A stretch of 46,648 nt of DNA, from contig JBBRLX010000034.1 of the NCBI GenBank assembly GCA_038231135.1, forward strand, positions 1-46,648. Reading direction: 5' to 3'. Below the pieces are notes generated by a model. It was not told the DNA's origin and did no database searches. It saw only the letters and a list, made by a program, of their open reading frames with translations. The DNA is from Candidatus Eiseniibacteriota bacterium (GTDB lineage: Bacteria; Eisenbacteria; RBG-16-71-46). Both the position numbers and the translations under genes were made by a program. Shown here piece by piece: positions 8,948 through 20,844 of this stretch; position 1 is the first letter of the stretch; each line of letters opens with the position of its first letter.

Positions 8948-11900
8948 CTACGGGGCAGTCTGCACCACCAGTTTCGCTTCGCCGGAACGCGACACGAGAT
9001 CGGGGTCGTACATGCCGCGCGCGGTGGCGGGCAGCGCCGTGAATCGGCCGCCGATCTCCGGGCGGATCAGGTATTCGATCGTGGTGTCGCCCGCGTCGAG
9101 GTTCTCGACGAAGAACACCGCCCGGTCGTCGCGCGATTCGGCGTGCGTGCCGTATGGCCATTCGGCACCGTCGGGCAGCAACTGCTCCACCTCGAACCCC
9201 GCGATCTGCGGGTCCTCGAGCGACAGGTAGTGCAGCGCCTTCGCCGACGTCAGCGTAAGGCGCACCAGCACCGTCTCGCCGATATGCAGCGCCTCCGCCG
9301 GGGCGAGCGTCGTGGTCAGGAACCGCGGCCGCCCGCGGCGGTCGGTGGTGCGCTCGGCGCGCAGGTATTCGCGTGTGACCGTGAGCCCGGACGCGTGCGT
9401 CGCGGGACCGGGGCTCGGCACCAGGGCGCGCGCGGACCACGACCACCAGGTCGTCAGCGCACCGTCGTGCGCGATCGTGAGCCGGTTGTCGCCGGCCTTG
9501 AGCTTGGTGCCGTCGAGCGTGACGCGCGCCGGCGGCGCGAACACGTCGGCCGGGCCGATGCGCCGCTGGAGCACATGAGCGCCGTTCCAGTCCACGCGCA
9601 CGCCGCCCGTCGCGCGCATCTCGGCCGCGTGCGCTCCCACGTATTCAGCGAGCGCCTGCGCCACGGGTGCGGTCTCGCGCGTGGAGCGCCACCACGGGCC
9701 GGTGCGATGGCGCATCAGCCACTGCACGACCTCGGTGGCGCCACGCTCCTGCGGCCGCACTGCGACCAGCGCGCCCAGCGCGTAGCCGGTGTTCGACAGG
9801 TCGCCGCCCCACCATGAATCACCGGCCTCCGGATCCACGTTCCAGTGCAGGCCGCCCCCGTCATGCGCCGCGCGTTTCATGAGCGCGTCGAGCAGCGCGC
9901 CCGCCTCGGCTTTGGCGCCCAGCTCCGCATGCAGGCGGGCCGCCAGCGCCAGCCCGGCATTGCCGAGCGCGTCCGGCGCGGACCGCAGCGTGAGCGCGAC
10001 TTCGTCGAGCCGCTCGCGCACCCCGGCGAACCGGTCCTTGGCCCGCGGCAGCTTCGTCAGCGCCACGAGATGCGCGCATACATACGCCTCGGCATCGGGC
10101 GTGCGCGCCTCCGCGAAGATCCGCGGCAGCGCCTGCACCGCACGGTCGAGCGCGCCGTCCGAGCCCTCGGGCGCCACGCCCGCGAGCACCGCCCGCGACA
10201 CGGCGTCGATCGCGAGTGCGGTCAGGTACGGGTCCATCTCGCCTTCCTGCCACCAGCCCCAGCCACCGTCCGATTGCTGGAGGCTCGACAGATGCTCGAG
10301 GTGACGCAGCAGTTTCTGTTTCACCTCCTGACCCTGGGGCGTCACCGCGCCGTCGGGGCCGATCGCGGCGAGGAACGCGCTGGCGGCGAGGATCGCGTTC
10401 GAGGTCTGCTCTGTGCAGCCGTACTCGTACACGAGCAATTCGTTCACCGCGAGCGCCGTCGCGGCGGCCGGGGACGGGGCGAAGTCGATGGTAACCGAAC
10501 TGCCCGCGCGCACCAGATCGCCCGGCAGCGGCACCGTCACCGTGGTCGTGGCGCCCTGGGCGACGCCGGCCGCGGCCGGCGTGAGCGGCACCGCGCGCGC
10601 GTGCACCGGCACCCGCACCTCGAGCGCGTCGCGGTCGGAGTTCGCGCGCGCGCGGAACGTGAACACTGCGTCCTCCGCGGTGGCGTCGCGGCCCGGCTCC
10701 GGAATCTGCACCGCCCATTCGCGGCGCGATTCGCCCTGGCGGGCGATCTGCGTGCGAGCGGTGTTGGGCCCTGTGAGTTTCGCACCCGTGGCCGCAACCG
10801 ATTCCTCGACGTCGGTCAGCGCCGCGGCGCTGCGGTTCGTCACCACCGACACCAGGCTGGCCGCGTCGCCCGCGATGAAGAACCTGGGGCCGGCAAGCCG
10901 CGCCACCACGTCCTTCGTTACAGTGGTCTTCGTCACCGCCTTGCCGACACGGGTGTCGAGCGTGGCGCCGCGGCTCGTGAACCGCCACGTCGTGAGGTTG
11001 TCAGGATACCGGAACCCCACACCCCCGCGGCCCGATGCATCGGTCAGCACCGTCGGGTTCCAGTAGGCGACATCCCGGAAGTTCCTCCGTACCTCGTCAC
11101 GTTCGCCCTTGTTCGCGCCGCCGTAGTAGAGCACCGGGAACGACACCACGGTCGTCACCCAGTTCGGGCGGCGGCCGTAGAACACCGCGTGCGGGTCGGG
11201 AGTGTCGTCCGGCCGCAGCGAATACAGCGCCTCGTCGACGACGCCCAGCGACACCTCGGCCGCGAGCGGCGCCCCCAAGCCGTCGGTGGTGCGGATGCTC
11301 ACCATGGTCGAGTCGCCCGGCCGCGCCGTGGTGCGGTCCGGCGTCAGCTCGATCTTGAGATCGTGGCGGCCGGCCTCGATCGGCAACTCGAGCACGCGCG
11401 AATGCACCTCCATGCCGCGGCGCACGTGCAGCGCGACGAACACGTTCGGCGCCCACTCCGCGCGGATCGGCAGCGCCACCAGCCCCGAATTGCCGGTCAG
11501 GTGCACGATGCGGCGCTCGAGCAGGTCCCGGCCCTCGACGGACACCAGCACCGTGGCGTTCTTGACGTCGGTGTTCACGAGCACGCGCGCGGTGTCGCCG
11601 CTGGCGTAACGCGCGCGGTCGGCGAACGCCTCCAGCGCGGGGTAGCGGTAGGCGAAGCTGGCCACGTTCGCGTCGTAGGCCCACGCGGAGGACTCGGCGG
11701 TGATGCGGTTCCCCTTCGAATCCTCGGCACGCGCCCGCACGATGAGCCGCCCGGCCCGCGCCGGGGAGGGCGTGAGTGACAGCCGCGCGCGGCCGAGCGA
11801 GTCCGTGGTCACGACCTGCGATGCGAGCGGCCGCGACGCGGCGGTGTAGCGGCGCTCGAGTGGGTTCCACGCCTCCTGATCGAGCTCCACGGTGACCGAC

Positions 11901-14296
11901 GCGAGCACCGGCTTGTCGGTGTGATCGCGCGTCGTCACCTCGATCGGCACCGGACGCCCGACCGGCACCACGTACGCGAGCGGCCGCACAGCCACGGTGA
12001 ACAGCCCGCGCCCCATGATCGCGCTGCCGCGTCCGCTCACGACGCGGTTCGATGGGTCGACGACCTCGACCTCGAGCGTGAGCCGCCGGTCGTAGGTCAC
12101 GCGCTCGGGGACGAACGACATCTCGGCGCGGCCGTCGAGGTCCGTGCGCGTCTCGCCGGTCTTGAGCACGCGGCCGTAGCCGGCCGGCGCGCCGTCACCG
12201 TCCTCCGATTCGCCCTCGTCCTCGCCGTCGCCCGAAGTGGCGCCGGCGCCGGACAGCCGGGCCTCGAACAGGTTGTAGCGCACCGCGGCGCCGAACACCG
12301 GCGCGCCGAAGAAGTACGTGGCCGCGATGCGGAACCGCACCTCGTCGCCGTTCACGTACACCGCGCGGTCCGGCGTCACCTCGACCTGGAACTCGGGTTT
12401 GCGATACTCCTGCACCGCGATCGTCGCCGTGGCGCTCGACGCGCCGACCGACGCGTGCAGCGACCAGTCGCCGAGCGCGACGTCGGCCGGCAGCGTGACC
12501 GAGCCGTCGGCCGCACCGCGCGCCGACACGTTCGCCATACCCACCGGGATCACGGCCCCGCCCGGACCCGTCAGTTCGACGCGCGCCGTAAGGGCGTCGG
12601 GCAGCGCCCAGCCGCCGGCGGGCGTGGACTTGCGCGCGAACAGCTTCCAGTTCACGACGTGGCCCGGGCGGTAGATCGGCCGGTCGGTGTAGAGGAACGC
12701 CTGGTCGCCGCCCTGGCTCGCGGCGGCGGCGATCGGCGCGTCCGCGACCGCGATCCCGCTCGTGACGCTCACCGCCACCACGCGCAGCCGGGCGCCGGGG
12801 CCGGCGTTCGCGATCAACGCGATGCCGTCGGCATCGGTGTCGACCGCGTCGCGCCGCGACTCGGCGACCGCGGTCGTCCAGCCCTTGCCGTTCTCCGACG
12901 GCGGCACCGGCTGCCGGATGACGAACACCCGGGCATCGGTCACGGGACGCCCGTCGCGCAACGTGGCCGCCGACACCCACACCTGACTCGGCGAGCGCTT
13001 CACGATCAGGCCGAGGTCGGTGACGAAGAACAGCGCGCGTCGCTCGACCGCACCCGCGCGGCCGCGCAGCAGGTACGCGCCCGGCGGCAGCGCGTGCGGC
13101 AGCGGCAGCTCCTCCTCGCGCCACGACCAGTCCGGGCCGGCGGCGGGGCTGTGCTGCCAGCGCTCGGGGCTCGTGAGCCCGCTGGTGTCGGAGCTGAGCA
13201 CGTAACGGCGGAAGTCGCCGGCGGGGTTCAGCAACTCGGGCGTCGGGATGTAGTACAACGCGAGATCGATGGTGCCAGTGCGGAACGACCTCAGCCCGAG
13301 CTTGGGCACCACGTTCGGCACGAACGCCTCGCGTTCGAGCACGAACGAGAACTCGACCTCCCGCGGCGTGACCGTGAACGCCGGCACGTCGCGCGCATCG
13401 CCTTCGCGCACCGTGACCGGCGCGGCCGCGCGCGCCGGCAGGAAGCCCTCGTGGCTGGTCTCGAGGCGGTAGCGGCCGGCGATCAGGTCGCCAATCGCGT
13501 ACGAGCCGTCGGCCCCGCTGGTGGCCACCTGCTCGGACGGGCCGCGTGCCGTGATCGTGATGCCGGGGACGCCGGTGCCGTCCGCGAGCCGCACGACGCC
13601 CGACAGCGACGCCGGGCGGCCGAGCTGGATGGGCGCGGTCGTGGTCTCGCCGCGCCGCACCGCGAGCCGCCGCACTTCAGTGGTGCGCAGCCCCGGAGCA
13701 TCGACCACGGCCGTCCAGTAACCGGCGCCAAGACCCTCGAAGCGCGCGGCGCCCTGGGCGTCGGTGAATCGTGGCGCCGGCGGCGCCTGGAAGCCTTCCC
13801 ACCACGTCGCGCCGCGCTCGCTCTGGAGCTGCACGCGGGCGTTCGCGACCGGCGCGCGCCCGTCGGTGCGCGTGGCCTTGACGAGCAGCATGCCGGCGCG
13901 GTCGAGCGGGATCACCAGCGCCGCGGTGCGCTGCGTCGCGGGAATCTGCCAGCCGCCGAGCACGTAGTCGGCGTAGCCCGCGGCGCCGACGGTCAGCGTG
14001 TAGTAGCGATCCGACGAAACATCGTCGATGCCGAACTCGCCCTGCTTGTTCGTGTGCGCGCGATGATAGCCCTGGCCGCCGTTGGTGTTCGCCAGCTCGA
14101 CCTCGGCGTCCGGGATCGGCTTCTGGGAATCGGAATCGACGACGCGCCCGCTCAGCCGCGTGACGGCCGCCGTGGCGGGCGCGGGAGCGAACGTGAGACT
14201 CGCGAGCGCCACGCCCAGCGCCGGGAGCAGCAGTGCCAGGCGGGTCCGCGCCGGCCACCCCCGGCGGCACGGGCTCGTTCCATAAGATCGCGTCAT
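8948..14296 (-). CDS. Bacterial alpha-2-macroglobulin family protein (~1780 aa) with N-terminal carboxypeptidase-regulatory-like Ig domains
   Basis: FLYTDRPIYRPG and QEYRKPEF (MG domains), VSLGVVDEA, RRNFRDVAYWNP, YPDNLTTW, thioester YGCTEQT (10406-10417), QQSDGGWGWW, RGMYDPD; signal peptide; ATG 14296 overlaps the upstream stop (ATGA). Confidence 0.93.
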   Translation of the reverse strand: MTRSYGTSPCRRGWPARTRLALLLPALGVALASLTFAPAPATAAVTRLSGRVVDSDSQKPIPDAEVELANTNGGQGYHRAHTNKQGEFGIDDVSSDRYYTLTVGAAGYADYVLGGWQIPATQRTAALVIPLDRAGMLLVKATRTDGRAPVANARVQLQSERGATWWEGFQAPPAPRFTDAQGAARFEGLGAGYWTAVVDAPGLRTTEVRRLAVRRGETTTAPIQLGRPASLSGVVRLADGTGVPGITITARGPSEQVATSGADGSYAIGDLIAGRYRLETSHEGFLPARAAAPVTVREGDARDVPAFTVTPREVEFSFVLEREAFVPNVVPKLGLRSFRTGTIDLALYYIPTPELLNPAGDFRRYVLSSDTSGLTSPERWQHSPAAGPDWSWREEELPLPHALPPGAYLLRGRAGAVERRALFFVTDLGLIVKRSPSQVWVSAATLRDGRPVTDARVFVIRQPVPPSENGKGWTTAVAESRRDAVDTDADGIALIANAGPGARLRVVAVSVTSGIAVADAPIAAAASQGGDQAFLYTDRPIYRPGHVVNWKLFARKSTPAGGWALPDALTARVELTGPGGAVIPVGMANVSARGAADGSVTLPADVALGDWSLHASVGASSATATIAVQEYRKPEFQVEVTPDRAVYVNGDEVRFRIAATYFFGAPVFGAAVRYNLFEARLSGAGATSGDGEDEGESEDGDGAPAGYGRVLKTGETRTDLDGRAEMSFVPERVTYDRRLTLEVEVVDPSNRVVSGRGSAIMGRGLFTVAVRPLAYVVPVGRPVPIEVTTRDHTDKPVLASVTVELDQEAWNPLERRYTAASRPLASQVVTTDSLGRARLSLTPSPARAGRLIVRARAEDSKGNRITAESSAWAYDANVASFAYRYPALEAFADRARYASGDTARVLVNTDVKNATVLVSVEGRDLLERRIVHLTGNSGLVALPIRAEWAPNVFVALHVRRGMEVHSRVLELPIEAGRHDLKIELTPDRTTARPGDSTMVSIRTTDGLGAPLAAEVSLGVVDEALYSLRPDDTPDPHAVFYGRRPNWVTTVVSFPVLYYGGANKGERDEVRRNFRDVAYWNPTVLTDASGRGGVGFRYPDNLTTWRFTSRGATLDTRVGKAVTKTTVTKDVVARLAGPRFFIAGDAASLVSVVTNRSAAALTDVEESVAATGAKLTGPNTARTQIARQGESRREWAVQIPEPGRDATAEDAVFTFRARANSDRDALEVRVPVHARAVPLTPAAAGVAQGATTTVTVPLPGDLVRAGSSVTIDFAPSPAAATALAVNELLVYEYGCTEQTSNAILAASAFLAAIGPDGAVTPQGQEVKQKLLRHLEHLSSLQQSDGGWGWWQEGEMDPYLTALAIDAVSRAVLAGVAPEGSDGALDRAVQALPRIFAEARTPDAEAYVCAHLVALTKLPRAKDRFAGVRERLDEVALTLRSAPDALGNAGLALAARLHAELGAKAEAGALLDALMKRAAHDGGGLHWNVDPEAGDSWWGGDLSNTGYALGALVAVRPQERGATEVVQWLMRHRTGPWWRSTRETAPVAQALAEYVGAHAAEMRATGGVRVDWNGAHVLQRRIGPADVFAPPARVTLDGTKLKAGDNRLTIAHDGALTTWWSWSARALVPSPGPATHASGLTVTREYLRAERTTDRRGRPRFLTTTLAPAEALHIGETVLVRLTLTSAKALHYLSLEDPQIAGFEVEQLLPDGAEWPYGTHAESRDDRAVFFVENLDAGDTTIEYLIRPEIGGRFTALPATARGMYDPDLVSRSGEAKLVVQTAP

Positions 14297-14976
14297 TCGT
14301 CGTCCTTTGTGCGGGTAGCCCGGATTCGCGGCGGCAGCTCCGCCACGGTCGCCACGTCGAATCGCTCGAACGCCGCGTCGCGCGCGTCGGCGATCACGCC
14401 GATGCGTCGCGCCTCGCGCAACGCGTACGCCACGGTACGTGCCTCGCCCGGCAGGAACGCCACGCTGCCCGTGGAGCCGCGCACCAGCAGGCCCTCGCGG
14501 CCCGGCGCGATCGCCATGGGATCCGCGAGCGGCGTGCCCGGCCCCGCGAACGACAGCACGATGCGCAGCCCGTCCAGTTCCTCGCGGCGTACCGGCGGCC
14601 GGCGGCGGTCGGCCTGCAGCGCCAGCACGGCGAGCGCGCGCACCGTCCCGCCCAGGGTGCTTGCGAGCGGCACGTCGCTGCCCATGCACGCACGCGTCGT
14701 GCGCCCGTCGACGAGGCTCACGTACACGCCCACCGCCGCACCCGGCCACGCTGTGCCGCTGTCGGCGGCGGCCGGGATCGGGGCGGACGCCGGAGCTTCG
14801 TAGCCGTCGAAGTGCGCGAGCATCGCGGCGCGCGCCGACGCCAGCAGCGCCACCGCCGCGGGCGTGCGCACGAACGCGCGATAGGCGGCGAGCGGGTCGG
14901 CGCCGGCGCGTGCGTTCGGGGCGGCGAGCGTCGTCATCACGCTCAGCGCCACGATCGCGGCTCGCAGCGACCTCAT
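14293..14976 (-). CDS. AMMECR1-domain protein with predicted signal peptide
   Basis: GVYVSL...TRACMG (variant of LRGCIG), DRRRPPVRREEL (cf. DPRFPPV..EEL), GREGLLV...AFLPG; N-terminus MRSLRAAIVALSVMTTLAAPNARA. Confidence 0.82.
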   Translation of the reverse strand: MRSLRAAIVALSVMTTLAAPNARAGADPLAAYRAFVRTPAAVALLASARAAMLAHFDGYEAPASAPIPAAADSGTAWPGAAVGVYVSLVDGRTTRACMGSDVPLASTLGGTVRALAVLALQADRRRPPVRREELDGLRIVLSFAGPGTPLADPMAIAPGREGLLVRGSTGSVAFLPGEARTVAYALREARRIGVIADARDAAFERFDVATVAELPPRIRATRTKDDE

Positions 14977-15758
14977 GGCCCGGACTCCGGCCGCACGCGA
15001 GCGACCGGGTACACGTCGCGATGCACCAGCTCGCGGTCACGCTCCTCGCCGTCCACGCGGCGGATGCGGTACAGCTCGATCTCGCGCCCCGGCGCCCCGG
15101 ACTCGGCGTCCGCGCTCTCGTGCACCTCGGATTCCAGCTCGTAGGTGGCGTCCGCCGGCGACTCGCCCTCGAGCCGTGCCGTGAGGGTCGATCCCAGCAC
15201 CTCGATGCGCACGCGCACGCGCTGGTCCAGGTCGTTGCGCAGCGCGAGATCCTTGACGCCCCACGACACGGTCGCGTCCTGGCCGAGCGGAATGTAGTCG
15301 ACGGGCGTCGAGTGCCGGTGGCGCTGCGCCACGGACAGCCCGGATAGCAGGCCCGCCACGAACAGCGTCGAGGCCACCTGGCAGATGCCGCCGCCGGTCT
15401 GGAGCTGGCGCGACTCGCGCAGGATCACGGGCGCATCCACGAAGCCGCGTTCCGACGTGCGCGGACCGACGGTGCGGTTGAACGACAGCACGTCGCCGGG
15501 GGCGAGCACCACGCCGTCGATCGCGGCGCACGCCAGCCGGATGTTGTGAGTGCGCCCCGCGCCGCTGCCGGCGAGGGTCGTTGAGAACGAGCCGAGCGTG
15601 ACCGGAAACGCGTTCTCGCCGGGCGCCGCGCCGCTGGAATCCCTGACGGCTGCGCTTGGGTTCACGGCCGCGGACGCCGGTTGCGCGACGAGCCCCGCGA
15701 GGACGGCGATCGCGCACGTCACAAGGGTCACGCCGTGGGAGCGAGGCACGCGGGCCAT
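14973..15758 (-). CDS. VanW family protein, exported
   Basis: RTHNIRLA, IDGVVLAPGDVLSFNRTVGPRT..RGF, GGGICQVASTL, RHRHS..VDYIPLGQDATV...DL..RN; signal peptide; stop overlaps the AMMECR1 start. Confidence 0.9.
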   Translation of the reverse strand: MARVPRSHGVTLVTCAIAVLAGLVAQPASAAVNPSAAVRDSSGAAPGENAFPVTLGSFSTTLAGSGAGRTHNIRLACAAIDGVVLAPGDVLSFNRTVGPRTSERGFVDAPVILRESRQLQTGGGICQVASTLFVAGLLSGLSVAQRHRHSTPVDYIPLGQDATVSWGVKDLALRNDLDQRVRVRIEVLGSTLTARLEGESPADATYELESEVHESADAESGAPGREIELYRIRRVDGEERDRELVHRDVYPVARVRPESGP

Positions 15759-15854
15759 CCGGGGCCGTCCTGGTATATGGTGAGGGGTATCGAAGCGCTT
15801 CGCTGGGTCACCATACACCAGCGCCTCGATCCCGCGTCCACTCCGGAGAACACC

Positions 15855-16304
15855 ATGAGCAGGACTGACAGCGCCGCGATCGCCGTGTCGTATGCGGGGC
15901 TCGGGGCGATGATCGCCGGAATCTTCGGGCTGTACTTTCGCCACGCGCTGTTCGCGTCGGGGCCGTGGATCGCGGTGCAGGTCGCGGCCGCGCTGCTGAT
16001 GCTGTGGGCCCGCATCACGTTCGGCGGCCGCAGCTTCCACGCCGGCGCCAATCCCACCGAGGGCGGGCTCGTGACCGCCGGTCCGTACGCATTCCTGCGC
16101 CACCCGATCTACGCGGCGATCCTGTGGTTCGCCTGGACCGGAGTGTTCATGCACCTGTCGTTCGTGAACGCCGCGCTGGGCCTGCTCCTCACCCTCGGCG
16201 CCGCGATGCGCATCGCGATGGAAGAGCGCGAGTTGCGCGCGCGCTATCCGGACTACGCCGCGTACGCATCGCGCACGCGGCGCGTCATTCCGTTCGTGCT
16301 GTGA
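15855..16304 (+). CDS. Isoprenylcysteine carboxylmethyltransferase / PEMT family membrane protein
   Basis: LVTAGPYAFLRHPIY, EEREL...YPDYAAY..RTRRVIPF; GGAG RBS. Confidence 0.88.
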   Translation: MSRTDSAAIAVSYAGLGAMIAGIFGLYFRHALFASGPWIAVQVAAALLMLWARITFGGRSFHAGANPTEGGLVTAGPYAFLRHPIYAAILWFAWTGVFMHLSFVNAALGLLLTLGAAMRIAMEERELRARYPDYAAYASRTRRVIPFVL

Positions 16305-16344
16305 GCGGCCGCGGGGCCAAGACGGCGCCGGTTCCGGCGCACGC

Positions 16345-17223
16345 TCAGCCGTCGGCCGTGAGCAGCAACTCCTCCTTGGCGGGCGAGTCATCGGTGGCCT
16401 TGTCGTCGACGTACTTCATGCGGACCGATAGTGAAATGAGGGCCACCGTCACGCCGAACAGGCACACGATCGTGGCGCCCATCGGCCAGTCCCTGAGGTA
16501 CGACAGCACCGCACCCAGGATCGAGACCACGATCCCGATCGCCCATGCCCAGTAGAGTCGCGCCGGGCCCTTGCGGCCGAGCAGTGTGGCGCAGACGATC
16601 GGGACGATCAGGAACGAGAACACCGCGAGCACCCCGGACACCTTGACGGAACTCGTGACCACCAGGCCGAACGCCGCGTAGAACAGGAAGTCCCACTTCT
16701 TCACGGACAGGCCCGTCGCGCGCGCCTCCTTGGGGTGTTCCGAACACAGCGCGAGCTTCCGGTGGTTGAAGAACAGGAACGCACCCGCGATCACGTCGAT
16801 GGTGACCATCACCGCGATGTCCTTCCACGTCACCCAGCCCAGCGCCTCTCCGCTCAGTGCCCCGCTCACGTGCTCCGCTCCGTGGGGCGAATTCGACAGC
16901 ATCAGCAACGTCGCCGCCGTCGCCAGCGCGAACGAGATCCCGATGAACGCCTCCTGCAGCACCGAGTGTTCGCGGTCCCACAGGAAGCTGAACAGCGCGG
17001 CACCCAGCAGCGTGAAGCCGAACGACCAGTAGTACATGCTGGGATCATGCGGCTCGGCCCCCAGCAGGAAGGCCACGCTCTGGCCGAGTGCGGCGATCTG
17101 GGCCAGCGCCAGATCCACGAAGATCACTCCCCGCGCGAGCACGTGCCGGCCGAGCGCGGGCAGGATCAACACGAGCAGCAGGCATGCCAGCAGCGGCAGC
17201 GCCATGACTCCGAAGAAGTTCAT
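16345..17223 (-). CDS. Metal (Zn/Mn) ABC transporter permease, ZnuB/ABC-3 family
   Basis: GRHVLARGVIFVDLALAQIAALG, EAFIGI, GVLAVFSFLIVP, DWPMGATIV; multiple TM segments. Confidence 0.88.
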   Translation of the reverse strand: MNFFGVMALPLLACLLLVLILPALGRHVLARGVIFVDLALAQIAALGQSVAFLLGAEPHDPSMYYWSFGFTLLGAALFSFLWDREHSVLQEAFIGISFALATAATLLMLSNSPHGAEHVSGALSGEALGWVTWKDIAVMVTIDVIAGAFLFFNHRKLALCSEHPKEARATGLSVKKWDFLFYAAFGLVVTSSVKVSGVLAVFSFLIVPIVCATLLGRKGPARLYWAWAIGIVVSILGAVLSYLRDWPMGATIVCLFGVTVALISLSVRMKYVDDKATDDSPAKEELLLTADG

Positions 17224-18210: not shown

Positions 18211-19305
18211 TCAGTACGCATGAGCCGGGTGGTATCCGATGGTGTAGCTCAGTTGAAGCGCGAGACGGTCGTCGGTCGGGTGGACGCCGGCGTCGGCCTT
18301 CGCGTGGCTGTACTCGAGCCTCACGAACGAGAACTCCGAGGGCGTCCACGCGAGGTTCACGGAACCCCGGGTCACCTTGCCGGCAATCGGATCGCCCGTG
18401 TCGTCGACCATGAAGTCCGTGAAGCTGTTGCGGGCCTGCTCGCCACGAACGCCCATCCACCAGATCTGCGACAGCCGATACTGGAACGACGCGTAGCCAC
18501 CGTCCTGCTCCCGCTGATAGGTCCCGCCCGCGGTCGAGCCCTTCTGGAGGTATTCGCTCTGCAGGATCCACCCGCGGCTGTTCGAGGCTCTCGCCGGCAC
18601 GTTGCGGATCGTCACGTCGGCGCCATACGCGTCGTGGCGGTTGCCGTCCTCACCACGTCCCTGCAGGATGGACTGGCCGATTTCCAGCGTCGTCGCGTCG
18701 TTCAGGTCGAACTGATTCTTCCAATGGCCCAGGTAAGGGACGTTGTCGTGCCGGTTGGAGCCGAGATCCAGCGGATGATCCCCATCGACGCGGGTTGCCT
18801 GATAGGCACCTCCCGTCACCTCGGAGAACCACGGCAACGGAGTGAGCCACGCGGCCTCCACGCCGGCGTCCTTGAAACCCTCCTCGCCGATGGTGTTGGC
18901 CATGACGATCGGAGCCTGGATGAACGGAAACGCGTGTGTATGGAGCAGGCCGTGCTTGCCGAACGTGCCGCGGATCTTCCCCAGCTTGAGCTGAATGCCG
19001 GGGATGCTGGTGCTGCGGACCCAGGCCTCCTCCGGGTCCACCGACCCGTCGCTCAGGAACACGATGTTGCTCGTGAACGTCCAGTACGGATCCACGACGG
19101 AGATCAGGCTGATCTCCGCATCGTCGAATCGCAGCCCATAGGGCTGATTCAGATTGTGGGCGGCCAGTCCGGAAAACAGCGCGTTCATCCCGATGGCCGG
19201 GTTTGCCAGGTTCGAGATCAACGATGATGTCTGAGCGATCGCAAATGACGGCGCGCACAGCAGCGCGGCGGACAGGCATGCAAGCGTGAGGAGTCTCATG
19301 CGCAT
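18211..19305 (-). CDS. Putative outer-membrane beta-barrel (metal-uptake porin/receptor-like)
   Basis: Signal peptide; NPAIG, EEAW, FGKHGLLHTHAFPFIQAP, alternating beta-strand pattern, SEFSFVRLEY, C-terminal IGYHPAHAY; upstream of the metal SBP gene. Confidence 0.75.
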   Translation of the reverse strand: MRMRLLTLACLSAALLCAPSFAIAQTSSLISNLANPAIGMNALFSGLAAHNLNQPYGLRFDDAEISLISVVDPYWTFTSNIVFLSDGSVDPEEAWVRSTSIPGIQLKLGKIRGTFGKHGLLHTHAFPFIQAPIVMANTIGEEGFKDAGVEAAWLTPLPWFSEVTGGAYQATRVDGDHPLDLGSNRHDNVPYLGHWKNQFDLNDATTLEIGQSILQGRGEDGNRHDAYGADVTIRNVPARASNSRGWILQSEYLQKGSTAGGTYQREQDGGYASFQYRLSQIWWMGVRGEQARNSFTDFMVDDTGDPIAGKVTRGSVNLAWTPSEFSFVRLEYSHAKADAGVHPTDDRLALQLSYTIGYHPAHAY

Positions 19306-19470
19306 TGGATAACAGCCTCCGGGCCTTGACGGGATGCGGTCTCCCGAACGGCCATGGTCCTATGGTTCGGAGCACCCCGGATGATGCAGGCGCACAGGGA
19401 ACGGCTCGTGCATCGCGATCTCGCGATGTGGAACCGTCAGGGAACCAACCCGCGCGGGGCGCGGGGAATC

Positions 19471-19746
19471 CTAGGAGATAGGAGGGGCCCGGCTGGGCGC
19501 GATGCCCGGAGCGATGCCCGTGGAGACCGCCGAGATCCGCTCGATCACGCGGACCGTCACCGGTCGCGGCGCGGATACGGTGGTGGAGGAGATGCTCACC
19601 GTCGCGGGCGCGTGGCCCGCGGTGCACACGGCGCAGGGACGCGAGTCCGACGGGTCGTGGTGATGAACTCCCACGATCCACATCGTGCAGGTCAGCAGCA
19701 GCGCGGAGAACAGCGCGATGCCGGAGACGCAGCGTTTCAGGCCCAT
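19471..19746 (-). CDS. DUF2946-like leader protein (TM segment, HHHD, CxxC, C-terminal RAPP motif)
   Basis: MGLKRCVSGIALFSALLLTCTMWIVGVHHHDPSDSRPCAVCTAGH...APSRAPPIS; directly upstream of the metal-uptake operon. Confidence 0.8.
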   Translation of the reverse strand: MGLKRCVSGIALFSALLLTCTMWIVGVHHHDPSDSRPCAVCTAGHAPATVSISSTTVSAPRPVTVRVIERISAVSTGIAPGIAPSRAPPIS

Positions 19747-20010
19747 GCGAGCATCCTTCATGTGAGCGAACTCCAGTCTTCAGGAGGCGTAACCAGCATC
19801 GGCGGGGTATGGACGGCAGTCAAGCCCGACGTCGCGAGCGCGGGTCATGCCAATGCAAGAAAACGACCGGTGCGGCGCCAGGCCGGCCCGGCGGGGATGG
19901 CCGATGAGGGTCAGCAGAGCCTGGCCGCGCAATTCGCCCGGCGCGCGGCGCCTCGACTATGCTCGCCCCGGCACATCCGAAAGGCCGCACCGACCCTGGA
20001 GAGAGCGCCA

Positions 20011-20844
20011 ATGCCCGCCAACCTCGTGCTCACGGACGTCCACGACGGCGTCGCGACGCTCACGCTCGACAACCCGACCCGCCTCAACGCGTTCACCGGC
20101 GACATGCGCGCCGCGATGAGCCGGGCGCTGGACGATGTCGCGGCTGACCCCGATGTGCGCGTGCTCGTGATCACCGGCGCCGGCCGCGCGTTCTGCGCCG
20201 GCGGCGACGTGAAGCACATGGCCGGGCTGAAGGAGCGCAACGCCGGATTCGAGGATATGGCGCCGCTGCTCGAGGCCGGCCGCGCCGTGGTGACGCGCAT
20301 CGATGCGCTGCCGTTTCCCACGGTGGCCGCCGTCAACGGTCCGGCCGCGGGCGCCGGCGTGAACCTGGCGCTCGCGTGCGACCTGCGCATCGCGTCGGAC
20401 CAGGCCAGCTTCGGCGAGACGTTCGCGCGCGTCGGCCTGCACATCGACTGGGGCGGTTCGTATTTCCTGCCGCGCGCGGTCGGCCTCGCGAAGGCGCTCG
20501 AGCTATGCTGGCTCGCGGACGTGATCGACGCGGCGGAGGCGCTGCGCATCGGGCTCGTGAACCGCGTGGTGCCGCACGCGGAGTTCGCCGCCGCGGTGAC
20601 GGCGCTGGCGGGACGGCTCGCCGCGGCGCCGCGGGCGAGCGTCGAGCTGACGAAGCGCACGCTGCGCGCCGGGTGGCAAGCCACGCTGCCCGCCGCGATC
20701 GATGCCGAGTTCGAGGCGCAGGCCGCGTGCTGGGATTCGCCCGACTCGGCCGAGGGGATCCGCGCGTTCGTCGAGAAGCGCGCGGCCGTGTTCGGAGCCC
20801 GCGCTGCGACGAGGGCGCCCGTGCGCGCGGGGACGTTCGAGTGA
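20011..20844 (+). CDS. Enoyl-CoA hydratase/isomerase (PaaG-like crotonase)
   Basis: GRAFCAGGD, AAVNGPAAGAGVNLALACD, FARVGLHIDWGGSY, EGIRAFVEKR. Confidence 0.92.
   Translation: MPANLVLTDVHDGVATLTLDNPTRLNAFTGDMRAAMSRALDDVAADPDVRVLVITGAGRAFCAGGDVKHMAGLKERNAGFEDMAPLLEAGRAVVTRIDALPFPTVAAVNGPAAGAGVNLALACDLRIASDQASFGETFARVGLHIDWGGSYFLPRAVGLAKALELCWLADVIDAAEALRIGLVNRVVPHAEFAAAVTALAGRLAAAPRASVELTKRTLRAGWQATLPAAIDAEFEAQAACWDSPDSAEGIRAFVEKRAAVFGARAATRAPVRAGTFE

Follow-up and report, generated by a model that had tools for sequence, protein, structure and literature searches.

The window analysed here, 46,648 nucleotides of contig JBBRLX010000034.1 from a Candidatus Eiseniibacteriota bacterium, carries on its minus strand a short upstream ORF (uORF), hereafter the leader, followed by genes for a predicted outer-membrane porin, a ZnuA/AztC-like metal-binding protein and a ZnuB/AztB-like ABC-3 permease (Table 1). 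The gene upstream of the leader is divergent, so the operon begins with the leader. The first-pass annotation of this DNA had described an ORF of ~91 codons with a transmembrane segment, HHHD, CAVC, a Ser/Thr/Pro-rich spacer and a near-terminal RAPP, separated by a 165-bp spacer from genes for an outer-membrane protein, a binding protein and a permease; all these elements were found on the minus strand, in that place and in that order.

Table 1. Coordinates of the leader, the spacer and the downstream genes in the window
Feature	Position	Strand	Remarks
Tentative sigma-70-like promoter, TTGACT-17-GATGCT	19795..19823	minus	loose pattern
Leader uORF	19471..19761	minus	96 aa from ATG 19761; 91 aa from ATG 19746
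Hydrophobic segment, signal peptide or anchor by prediction	19666..19731	minus	residues ~6-27 in 91-aa numbering
Putative metal-binding segment, H28-H29-H30-D31 ... C38-x2-C41 ... H45	19612..19665	minus	from sequence; predicted to bind metal
RAPP codons, predicted arrest site	19480..19491	minus	R86-A-P-P89; 44 residues after C41
Spacer, C-rich after the stop codon, with GC-rich hairpins	19306..19470	minus	165 nt; likely pause and Rho-termination zone
Palindrome named earlier, tip of a longer hairpin	19411..19428		sequence not conserved
Porin Shine-Dalgarno sequence, GGAGG	19316..19320	minus	from sequence
Outer-membrane porin, predicted ~16-stranded barrel, most like OprP/OprO	18211..19305	minus	conserved His motifs
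ZnuA/AztC-like metal-binding protein, PF01297	17220..18221	minus	three-His site and an extra invariant His
ZnuB/AztB-like ABC-3 permease, PF00950	16345..17223	minus	no ATPase gene after it

The leader and its operon

The stop codon of the leader lies at 19471-19473, and each of the two candidate in-frame start codons is preceded by a Shine-Dalgarno (SD)-like word; the longer, 96-aa form has the most frequent length among the leader homologs. The third-position GC content (GC3) of 0.89 is of the coding type. The hydrophobic segment reaches a hydropathy of 2.1 across 17 residues, and the AlphaFold model of the leader consists of helices at residues 3-27 and 39-43, with the rest modelled as coil and no significant match in a fold search. 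The codons for HHH occupy positions 19657-19665 and those for CAVC positions 19624-19635; the protein reads CAVC-x3-H, followed by a low-complexity linker of 44 residues, mostly, Ser, Thr, Pro, Ala and Val, and ends with RAPP, Ile, Ser and the stop codon. A Pfam scan of the leader at E ≤ 1 returned nothing, and NCBIfam contains no fitting family for either the leader or the porin. A loose sigma-70-like promoter pattern is found in 17 of 29 loci, a count made without a control, and the copy in the window fails a strict scan.

The porin shows a weak match to BBP2, and the best structural match of its predicted barrel is OprP (TM 0.60); its nearest relatives, with up to ~80% identity, come mostly from entries labelled Ca. 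Eisenbacteria. These proteins form an uncharacterised family with an HxH motif near residues 120-122, a C-terminal GxHxAH motif and an OprP-like predicted fold, and can be considered candidate metal-selective porins. The binding protein is present at all 80 porin loci of the wider scan described below. His82, His156 and His162 are invariant in this set, His226 is present in 73 of the 80 proteins, and no conserved acidic fourth ligand was found at these loci. The best NCBIfam matches are AztC for the binding protein and AztB for the permease, both well below the cut-off; the top PDB matches of the binding protein are streptococcal adhesion/Lmb-type and cyanobacterial zinc-uptake proteins, with Mn/Fe binders appearing as well.

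The window's operon has no ABC ATPase gene after the permease, as the next gene sits on the other strand. Among 58 loci with at least 1.2 kb of sequence past the permease, an ATPase-like ORF lies downstream only in one (L103), and most genomes of the family encode a single ABC-3 permease, that of the porin operon. The importer may borrow an ATPase or function without one. The window's own genome also encodes a second ZnuA/ATPase/ABC-3 operon, which has no leader (L050 5577-7231; G000:C2). Beyond the permease, the window contains a very large gene (8948-16391), resembling by eye the alpha-2-macroglobulin type, that adjoins genes for AMMECR1 and VanW-domain proteins.

Conservation of the leader

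Of 61 genomes, 49 yielded the porin, and a leader is present at all 30 best porin loci, the window included, 29 of them by rule and the thirtieth (L030) in an HGPP form; at two loci (L002, L005), the leader precedes an additional upstream copy of the porin. A wider scan, with genomes partly shared with the first 30-locus set, kept 80 of 116 confirmed porin loci, of which 68 have a leader, 6 are cut off upstream and 6 have none. The leader architecture (helix...R[AGSD]PP) is accordingly found at 68 of 74 informative loci, in several named lineages, whereas among 2531 control windows, the rule fired in 3, including two apparently genuine extra leaders; the leader-bearing loci come from related genomes and are not independent samples. 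Five of the six leaderless loci are labelled as Bdellovibrionales/Deltaproteobacteria, and the sixth (L100) has a second porin that does have a leader. Lack of conservation upstream of orthologous operons was one of the conditions that the first-pass annotation had named as refuting its own reading; it falls because a uORF similar to CruR, the copper-responsive leader of Bordetella pertussis, heads the orthologous operons.

The mean identity among the leaders is only ~27%, and the few fixed positions are C38, C41, P88 and P89 in one alignment (A1) and H28, C38 and C41 in another (A3). The distance between the CxxC motif and the Arg of the terminal motif is 43-46 residues in all 30 leaders (44 in 24 of them, including that of the window), the Cys motif nearest to 45 having been taken where there were several; in the wider scan, the distance from CxxC to RAPP is 42-46 in all 52 leaders that have CxxC, and listing every CxxC of this set gives the same range. 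The terminal motif itself is RAPP in 48 of the 68 leaders, RGPP in 12, RSPP in 7 and RDPP in 1.

A search with a leader profile retrieved 3128 representatives at E ≤ 0.001. The leader motifs are present in 148 of 149 profile matches, a partly circular count, given that the profile was built from those motifs. A match was found in 47 of the 61 genomes, usually, one copy in each, and a genome-wide search found no second copy in the window's own genome. At 12 further loci, leaders precede porin/binding-protein operons or TonB receptors, with one weak match beside an RND pump. Back-to-back divergent leaders occur at L013 2718-3543 / L170 and at L054 576-1439; in the former pair, one leader stands before a porin operon, and its partner before a TonB-dependent receptor.

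Proposed mechanism and the sensed metal

The presence of a stalling motif and a His/Cys cluster ahead of uptake genes suggests that the leader likely switches uptake off on metal binding. Our preferred reading, to which we assign a probability of roughly 0.55, is that this is an arrest leader that keeps the operon on when metal is scarce and whose His/Cys cluster binds metal, likely, zinc, releasing the stall and shutting down uptake, likely, in a Rho-dependent manner. When metal is scarce, the ribosome translating the leader would stall at RAPP, and the porin, ZnuA-like and ZnuB-like genes would stay on; when RAPP occupies the peptidyl-transferase centre, the distance to the Cys pair would be 47-50 residues and that to the His run 58-60 residues, which would place both outside the tunnel. 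Metal binding would then fold the His/Cys segment, pull on the nascent chain and relieve the stall, and the released ribosome would expose C-rich RNA on which Rho could load and terminate transcription before the porin gene. The ORF, its motifs, the fixed 44-residue ruler, the first position in the operon and the conservation are established by sequence; translation of the leader, its stalling and its response to metal are predicted. Such a release-by-metal scheme would fit the logic of importers that are off when metal is plentiful. RAPP and RGPP support stalling in several contexts (PMC12992588), and a nascent chain can be freed from an arrest by the pull of zinc-driven folding (PMC4571824).

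Averaged across the 68 leaders, a sensor segment contains 4.6 His, 2.1 Cys and 0.15 Met, and the sum of His and Cys is always at least 4. The CxxC motif is missing in 16 leaders, which have HxxC, CxC or neither, and 3 of the 68 contain no Cys. In the three Cys-free leaders (L094, L109, L111), the clusters consist of His only and keep the same distance to RAPP. The leaders without CxxC and those without Cys suit a divalent ion better than Cu(I). In binding proteins of this kind, His as the third ligand marks the Zn types rather than the Mn types, with known exceptions, and the Mn-type PsaA/MntC use Glu in this position. Taking together the three-His binding protein, the His-for-Cys swaps and the scarcity of Met, zinc is probably the sensed metal. 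Of six TonB receptors behind related leaders, four score higher as ZnuD than as copper receptors, all below the cut-off, and two of these four score still higher as haem receptors.

An arrest leader of the same kind that responds mainly to copper, nickel, cobalt or manganese is an unlikely but reasonable alternative. Cluster A-I binding proteins are promiscuous, Mn/Fe binders also appear among the PDB matches, and if the signal peptide were cleaved before the His run, an N-terminal x-x-His site for Cu(II)/Ni(II) could arise. These points are opposed by the near lack of Met and the dispensability of Cys in the sensor and by the absence of any recognised copper-handling gene in the window's operon. 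Manganese, in particular, is disfavoured by the third ligand of the binding protein, which is His in 73 of 80 cases rather than the Glu of the Mn types, and Mn uptake apparently runs through another operon, mntR-NRAMP, which has an operator of its own (see below). From the experimental side, the relatives that have been tested, CruR and CutF, sense copper, via CxxC and CxxxC, respectively (PMC9426467, PMC9973294, bioRxiv 2025.02.05.636593); His-only CutF-like leaders are linked to the Ni/Co transporters HupE/UreJ (bioRxiv 2025.02.05.636593); and Roy et al. reported a merely moderate effect of Zn on CruR (PMC9426467).

The preferred reading, with zinc as the main signal, would also bear on the regulation of metal uptake in a genome with no detected Fur/Zur. 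In the window's genome, which is 93% complete, no Fur-family gene was found either with Pfam or with an HMM built from nine Fur proteins of relatives. Within the same family, 4 of 36 sampled genomes have a Fur match, as do 18 of 46 genomes that are at least 90% complete (16 of these 18 in two genera); 29 of 31 family genomes with a leader match have no Fur match, and DtxR-family proteins are encoded in 35 of 36 family members. A TTAG-N6-CTAA box occurs twice directly before the mntR-like and NRAMP genes of the window's own genome (G000:C10:35637-35672; L046 1269-1304), and the paired boxes are likely the MntR operator; another perfect box lies at G000:C13:22950. Near the leader (19300-20050), no DtxR/MntR box was found at up to 2 mismatches, and only one of 30 leader loci has an MntR-type box at up to 1 mismatch. 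A conserved AT-rich palindrome upstream of the leader was not found either, 3 of 29 loci having weak ones and nothing more. Given that no Fur/Zur was detected and no MntR-type box accompanies the leader, the leader may be the main metal switch of the operon here. This suggestion is limited to the present genome, where regulators of other types may operate, and does not extend to all leader-bearing genomes: outside the family, many of them have Fur, and the HGPP-form leader of L030 adjoins a divergent fur gene. The far-reaching version, in which a zinc-sensing arrest peptide replaces Zur as the sole switch of zinc uptake in Fur-less Eisenbacteria-like bacteria, with a His-lined porin and a ZnuA/ZnuB-like importer lacking an ATPase under its control, is tentative, and we estimate that the odds are against it.

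The spacer and the readout of stalling

In the relatives, the spacer between the leader and the porin is 56-205 nt long. The window's spacer contains no intrinsic (U-tract) terminator and has no Rfam match to a riboswitch or any other family. The hairpin quoted in the first-pass annotation exists as an 8-bp palindrome with a 2-nt loop; its predicted fold, within a longer hairpin, has a stem of 7 bp and a loop of 4 nt, and a repeat at least this long arises in 2.7% of 1000 shuffles; as a conserved element, it was rejected, the sequence being absent from the other 29 spacers. A perfect stem of at least 7 bp of some kind is present in 19 of the 30 spacers. In the first 50 nt after the stop codon, C exceeds G in 29 of 30 leaders, with a mean excess of +8.4, compared with 50-54% of the ordinary genes of this genome, with a mean of +0.6 to +0.7, and the C-over-G bias of the leaders peaks at RAPP. 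The window's own post-stop excess is modest (+5, reached by 24% of ordinary genes), and its best 78-nt C>G stretch is matched by 15% of random regions. The genome encodes Rho. On these compositional grounds, C-rich spacers together with Rho would favour Rho-dependent attenuation.

Alternatively, a metal-sensing leader could act at translation, with the stalled ribosome melting a structure that hides the porin SD, in the manner of SecM or CutF and without Rho, which we regard as quite unlikely. In the minimum free energy fold, the RAPP codons are paired with sequence next to the porin SD; the probability that the SD itself pairs with the stall footprint is 0.05 in the window, and the cost of opening the ribosome-binding site rises on stalling, from 13.2 to 14.9 or 17.6 kcal/mol. 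A narrower calculation for the window gives a change of -1.2 on stalling, which does not go beyond the -1.8 obtained with a mock footprint. Thus, unmasking of the SD is unsupported in this window, and the length of the spacer, similar to that of CruR, also speaks against it. In the relatives, pairing of the SD with the footprint reaches a probability of at least 0.5 at 7 of 30 loci, mostly, those with short spacers. Across the loci, the mean shift in opening energy on stalling is -1.1 kcal/mol compared with -0.3 for the mock footprint (p=0.31) and with -0.4 after synonymous recoding (p=0.023, with kin that are not independent). Given these 7 loci and the mean shift of the family, translational control may operate in some members.

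Comparison with known arrest peptides

RAPP leaders are known as secretion monitors (PMC10987492, PMC12992588), and the leader has an export segment, such that the peptide might monitor secretion, in the manner of SecM/ApdP, or be a small exported metal chaperone, with a metal motif that is not regulatory. Both versions appear highly improbable: the downstream genes are involved in metal uptake, whereas Sec/YidC monitors (SecM, ApdA, ApdP) lie upstream of sec or yidC, and a fixed distance from the ligands to RAPP across a variable, unstructured linker fits a cotranslational ruler, not a folded chaperone. That the leader is a chance ORF in GC-rich DNA, for which one could cite the empty Pfam scan and the 214 stop-to-stop frames genome-wide that end in R[AG]PP (28 of them with CxxC in the tail), is refuted by the conservation of its position and architecture, and the near single copy per genome and the coding-type GC3 argue in the same direction, leaving this reading with a practically negligible probability. 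Among these 28 frames, only the leader has a hydrophobic helix by eye. Ordinary genes in this genome avoid RAPP: among 1446 predicted genes, RAPP/RGPP occurs once and AAPP/AGPP 21 times within the final 200 aa.

The class of arrest leaders is already published, and similar uORFs are present in the 2025 source data (PMC12992588); new at this locus are the lack of a detected Fur/Zur, the series with His in place of Cys and an operon without an ATPase. Fujiwara et al. 2025 catalogued RAPP/RGPP uORFs (PMC12992588), and the available source data of that study include at least nine RAPP uORFs before genes named as zinc-regulated outer-membrane receptors. Its main text, as available, mentions neither zinc nor ZnuA and reports no such leader as tested. 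The word "zinc" is absent from the main texts of PMC9426467, PMC9973294, PMC12992588 and the 2025 CutF preprint, and "ZnuA" from those of the first three; in the literature covered, mainly, openly accessible papers with part of their supplements, we found no experimental test of a zinc-sensing arrest leader. Metal-sensing arrest leaders have so far been demonstrated for copper only, and, according to Roy et al., no riboswitch is known for Cu or Zn (PMC9426467). A zinc-tuned leader, if real, would add a post-transcriptional zinc sensor and explain the control of zinc uptake without a detectable Fur/Zur. The natural series of CxxC, HxxC and Cys-free leaders at a fixed distance from RAPP offers a ready test of ligand identity against metal choice, and an assay of the leader calls for a purified translation system, not for a culture of the organism.

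CruR (Bp2923, DUF2946/PF11162), like the leader, is the first gene of a metal-import operon and has an export segment. In the leader and CruR, respectively, 44 and 45 residues separate CxxC from the C-terminal RAPP, a distance within the CruR-type ~45 ± 2, and the GC-rich spacers are 165 and 162 nt long (PMC9426467); a C>G bias at the 3' end and Rho are common to both. CruR needs the CxxC-RAPP spacing to be kept within a few residues, and in the published model, its stalled ribosome shields a C-rich rut site (PMC9426467); the arrest has been demonstrated, the P and A sites being occupied by the two Pro codons (PMC12992588). The leader differs from CruR in being shorter (91-96 vs 145 aa), in carrying a run of His immediately behind the hydrophobic helix and a further His four residues past CxxC, in having relatives in which His replaces Cys, in its lineage, near Ca. 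Eisenbacteria as opposed to Proteobacteria, and in the genes that it would control, which encode the porin and PF01297 and PF00950 proteins and not, as in the case of CruR, a TonB receptor/PepSY copper operon. The PF11162 profile search suggested in the first-pass annotation gave 9.4 bits (E=2.3) for the window's leader, below the curated cut-off of 23.7 bits, and a search of the window's own genome with this profile did not return the locus. Among 31 relatives, there were 21 weak matches and one that passes (24.6 bits), and 4 of 149 relatives match at E ≤ 1e-4; the matches fall mostly within the C-terminal half of the profile. Hence, of the proposed analogy to a CruR-like cis-acting sensor, the conserved architecture ahead of orthologous operons in a distant lineage holds, whereas similarity to DUF2946 itself stays below the cut-off. 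By its layout, the leader probably works like CruR.

CutF of Rhodobacter capsulatus is likewise an exported, cis-acting uORF product with a Cys motif plus a stall motif, rich in proline, at the C-terminus (PMC9973294, bioRxiv 10.1101/2025.02.05.636593), CxxxC and PPP as opposed to the CxxC and RAPP of the leader. It acts in the opposite direction: the metal induces a stall that opens an SD hairpin before a detoxifying oxidase (PMC9973294, bioRxiv 2025.02.05.636593), whereas the leader precedes importers. A CutF-type stem-loop that hides the SD and is opened by stalling was not found in the window and is possible in 7 of the 30 relatives. In the engineered ADR1a-SecM reporter, Zn binding by a nascent domain with two His and two Cys releases a ribosome arrest (PMC4571824), as proposed here; this construct is artificial and folds inside the tunnel, at 24-26 residues, whereas in the leader, over 40 residues separate the ligands from the arrest site. 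Within the CruR/CutF-like leaders, it is best regarded as a divergent branch rich in His.
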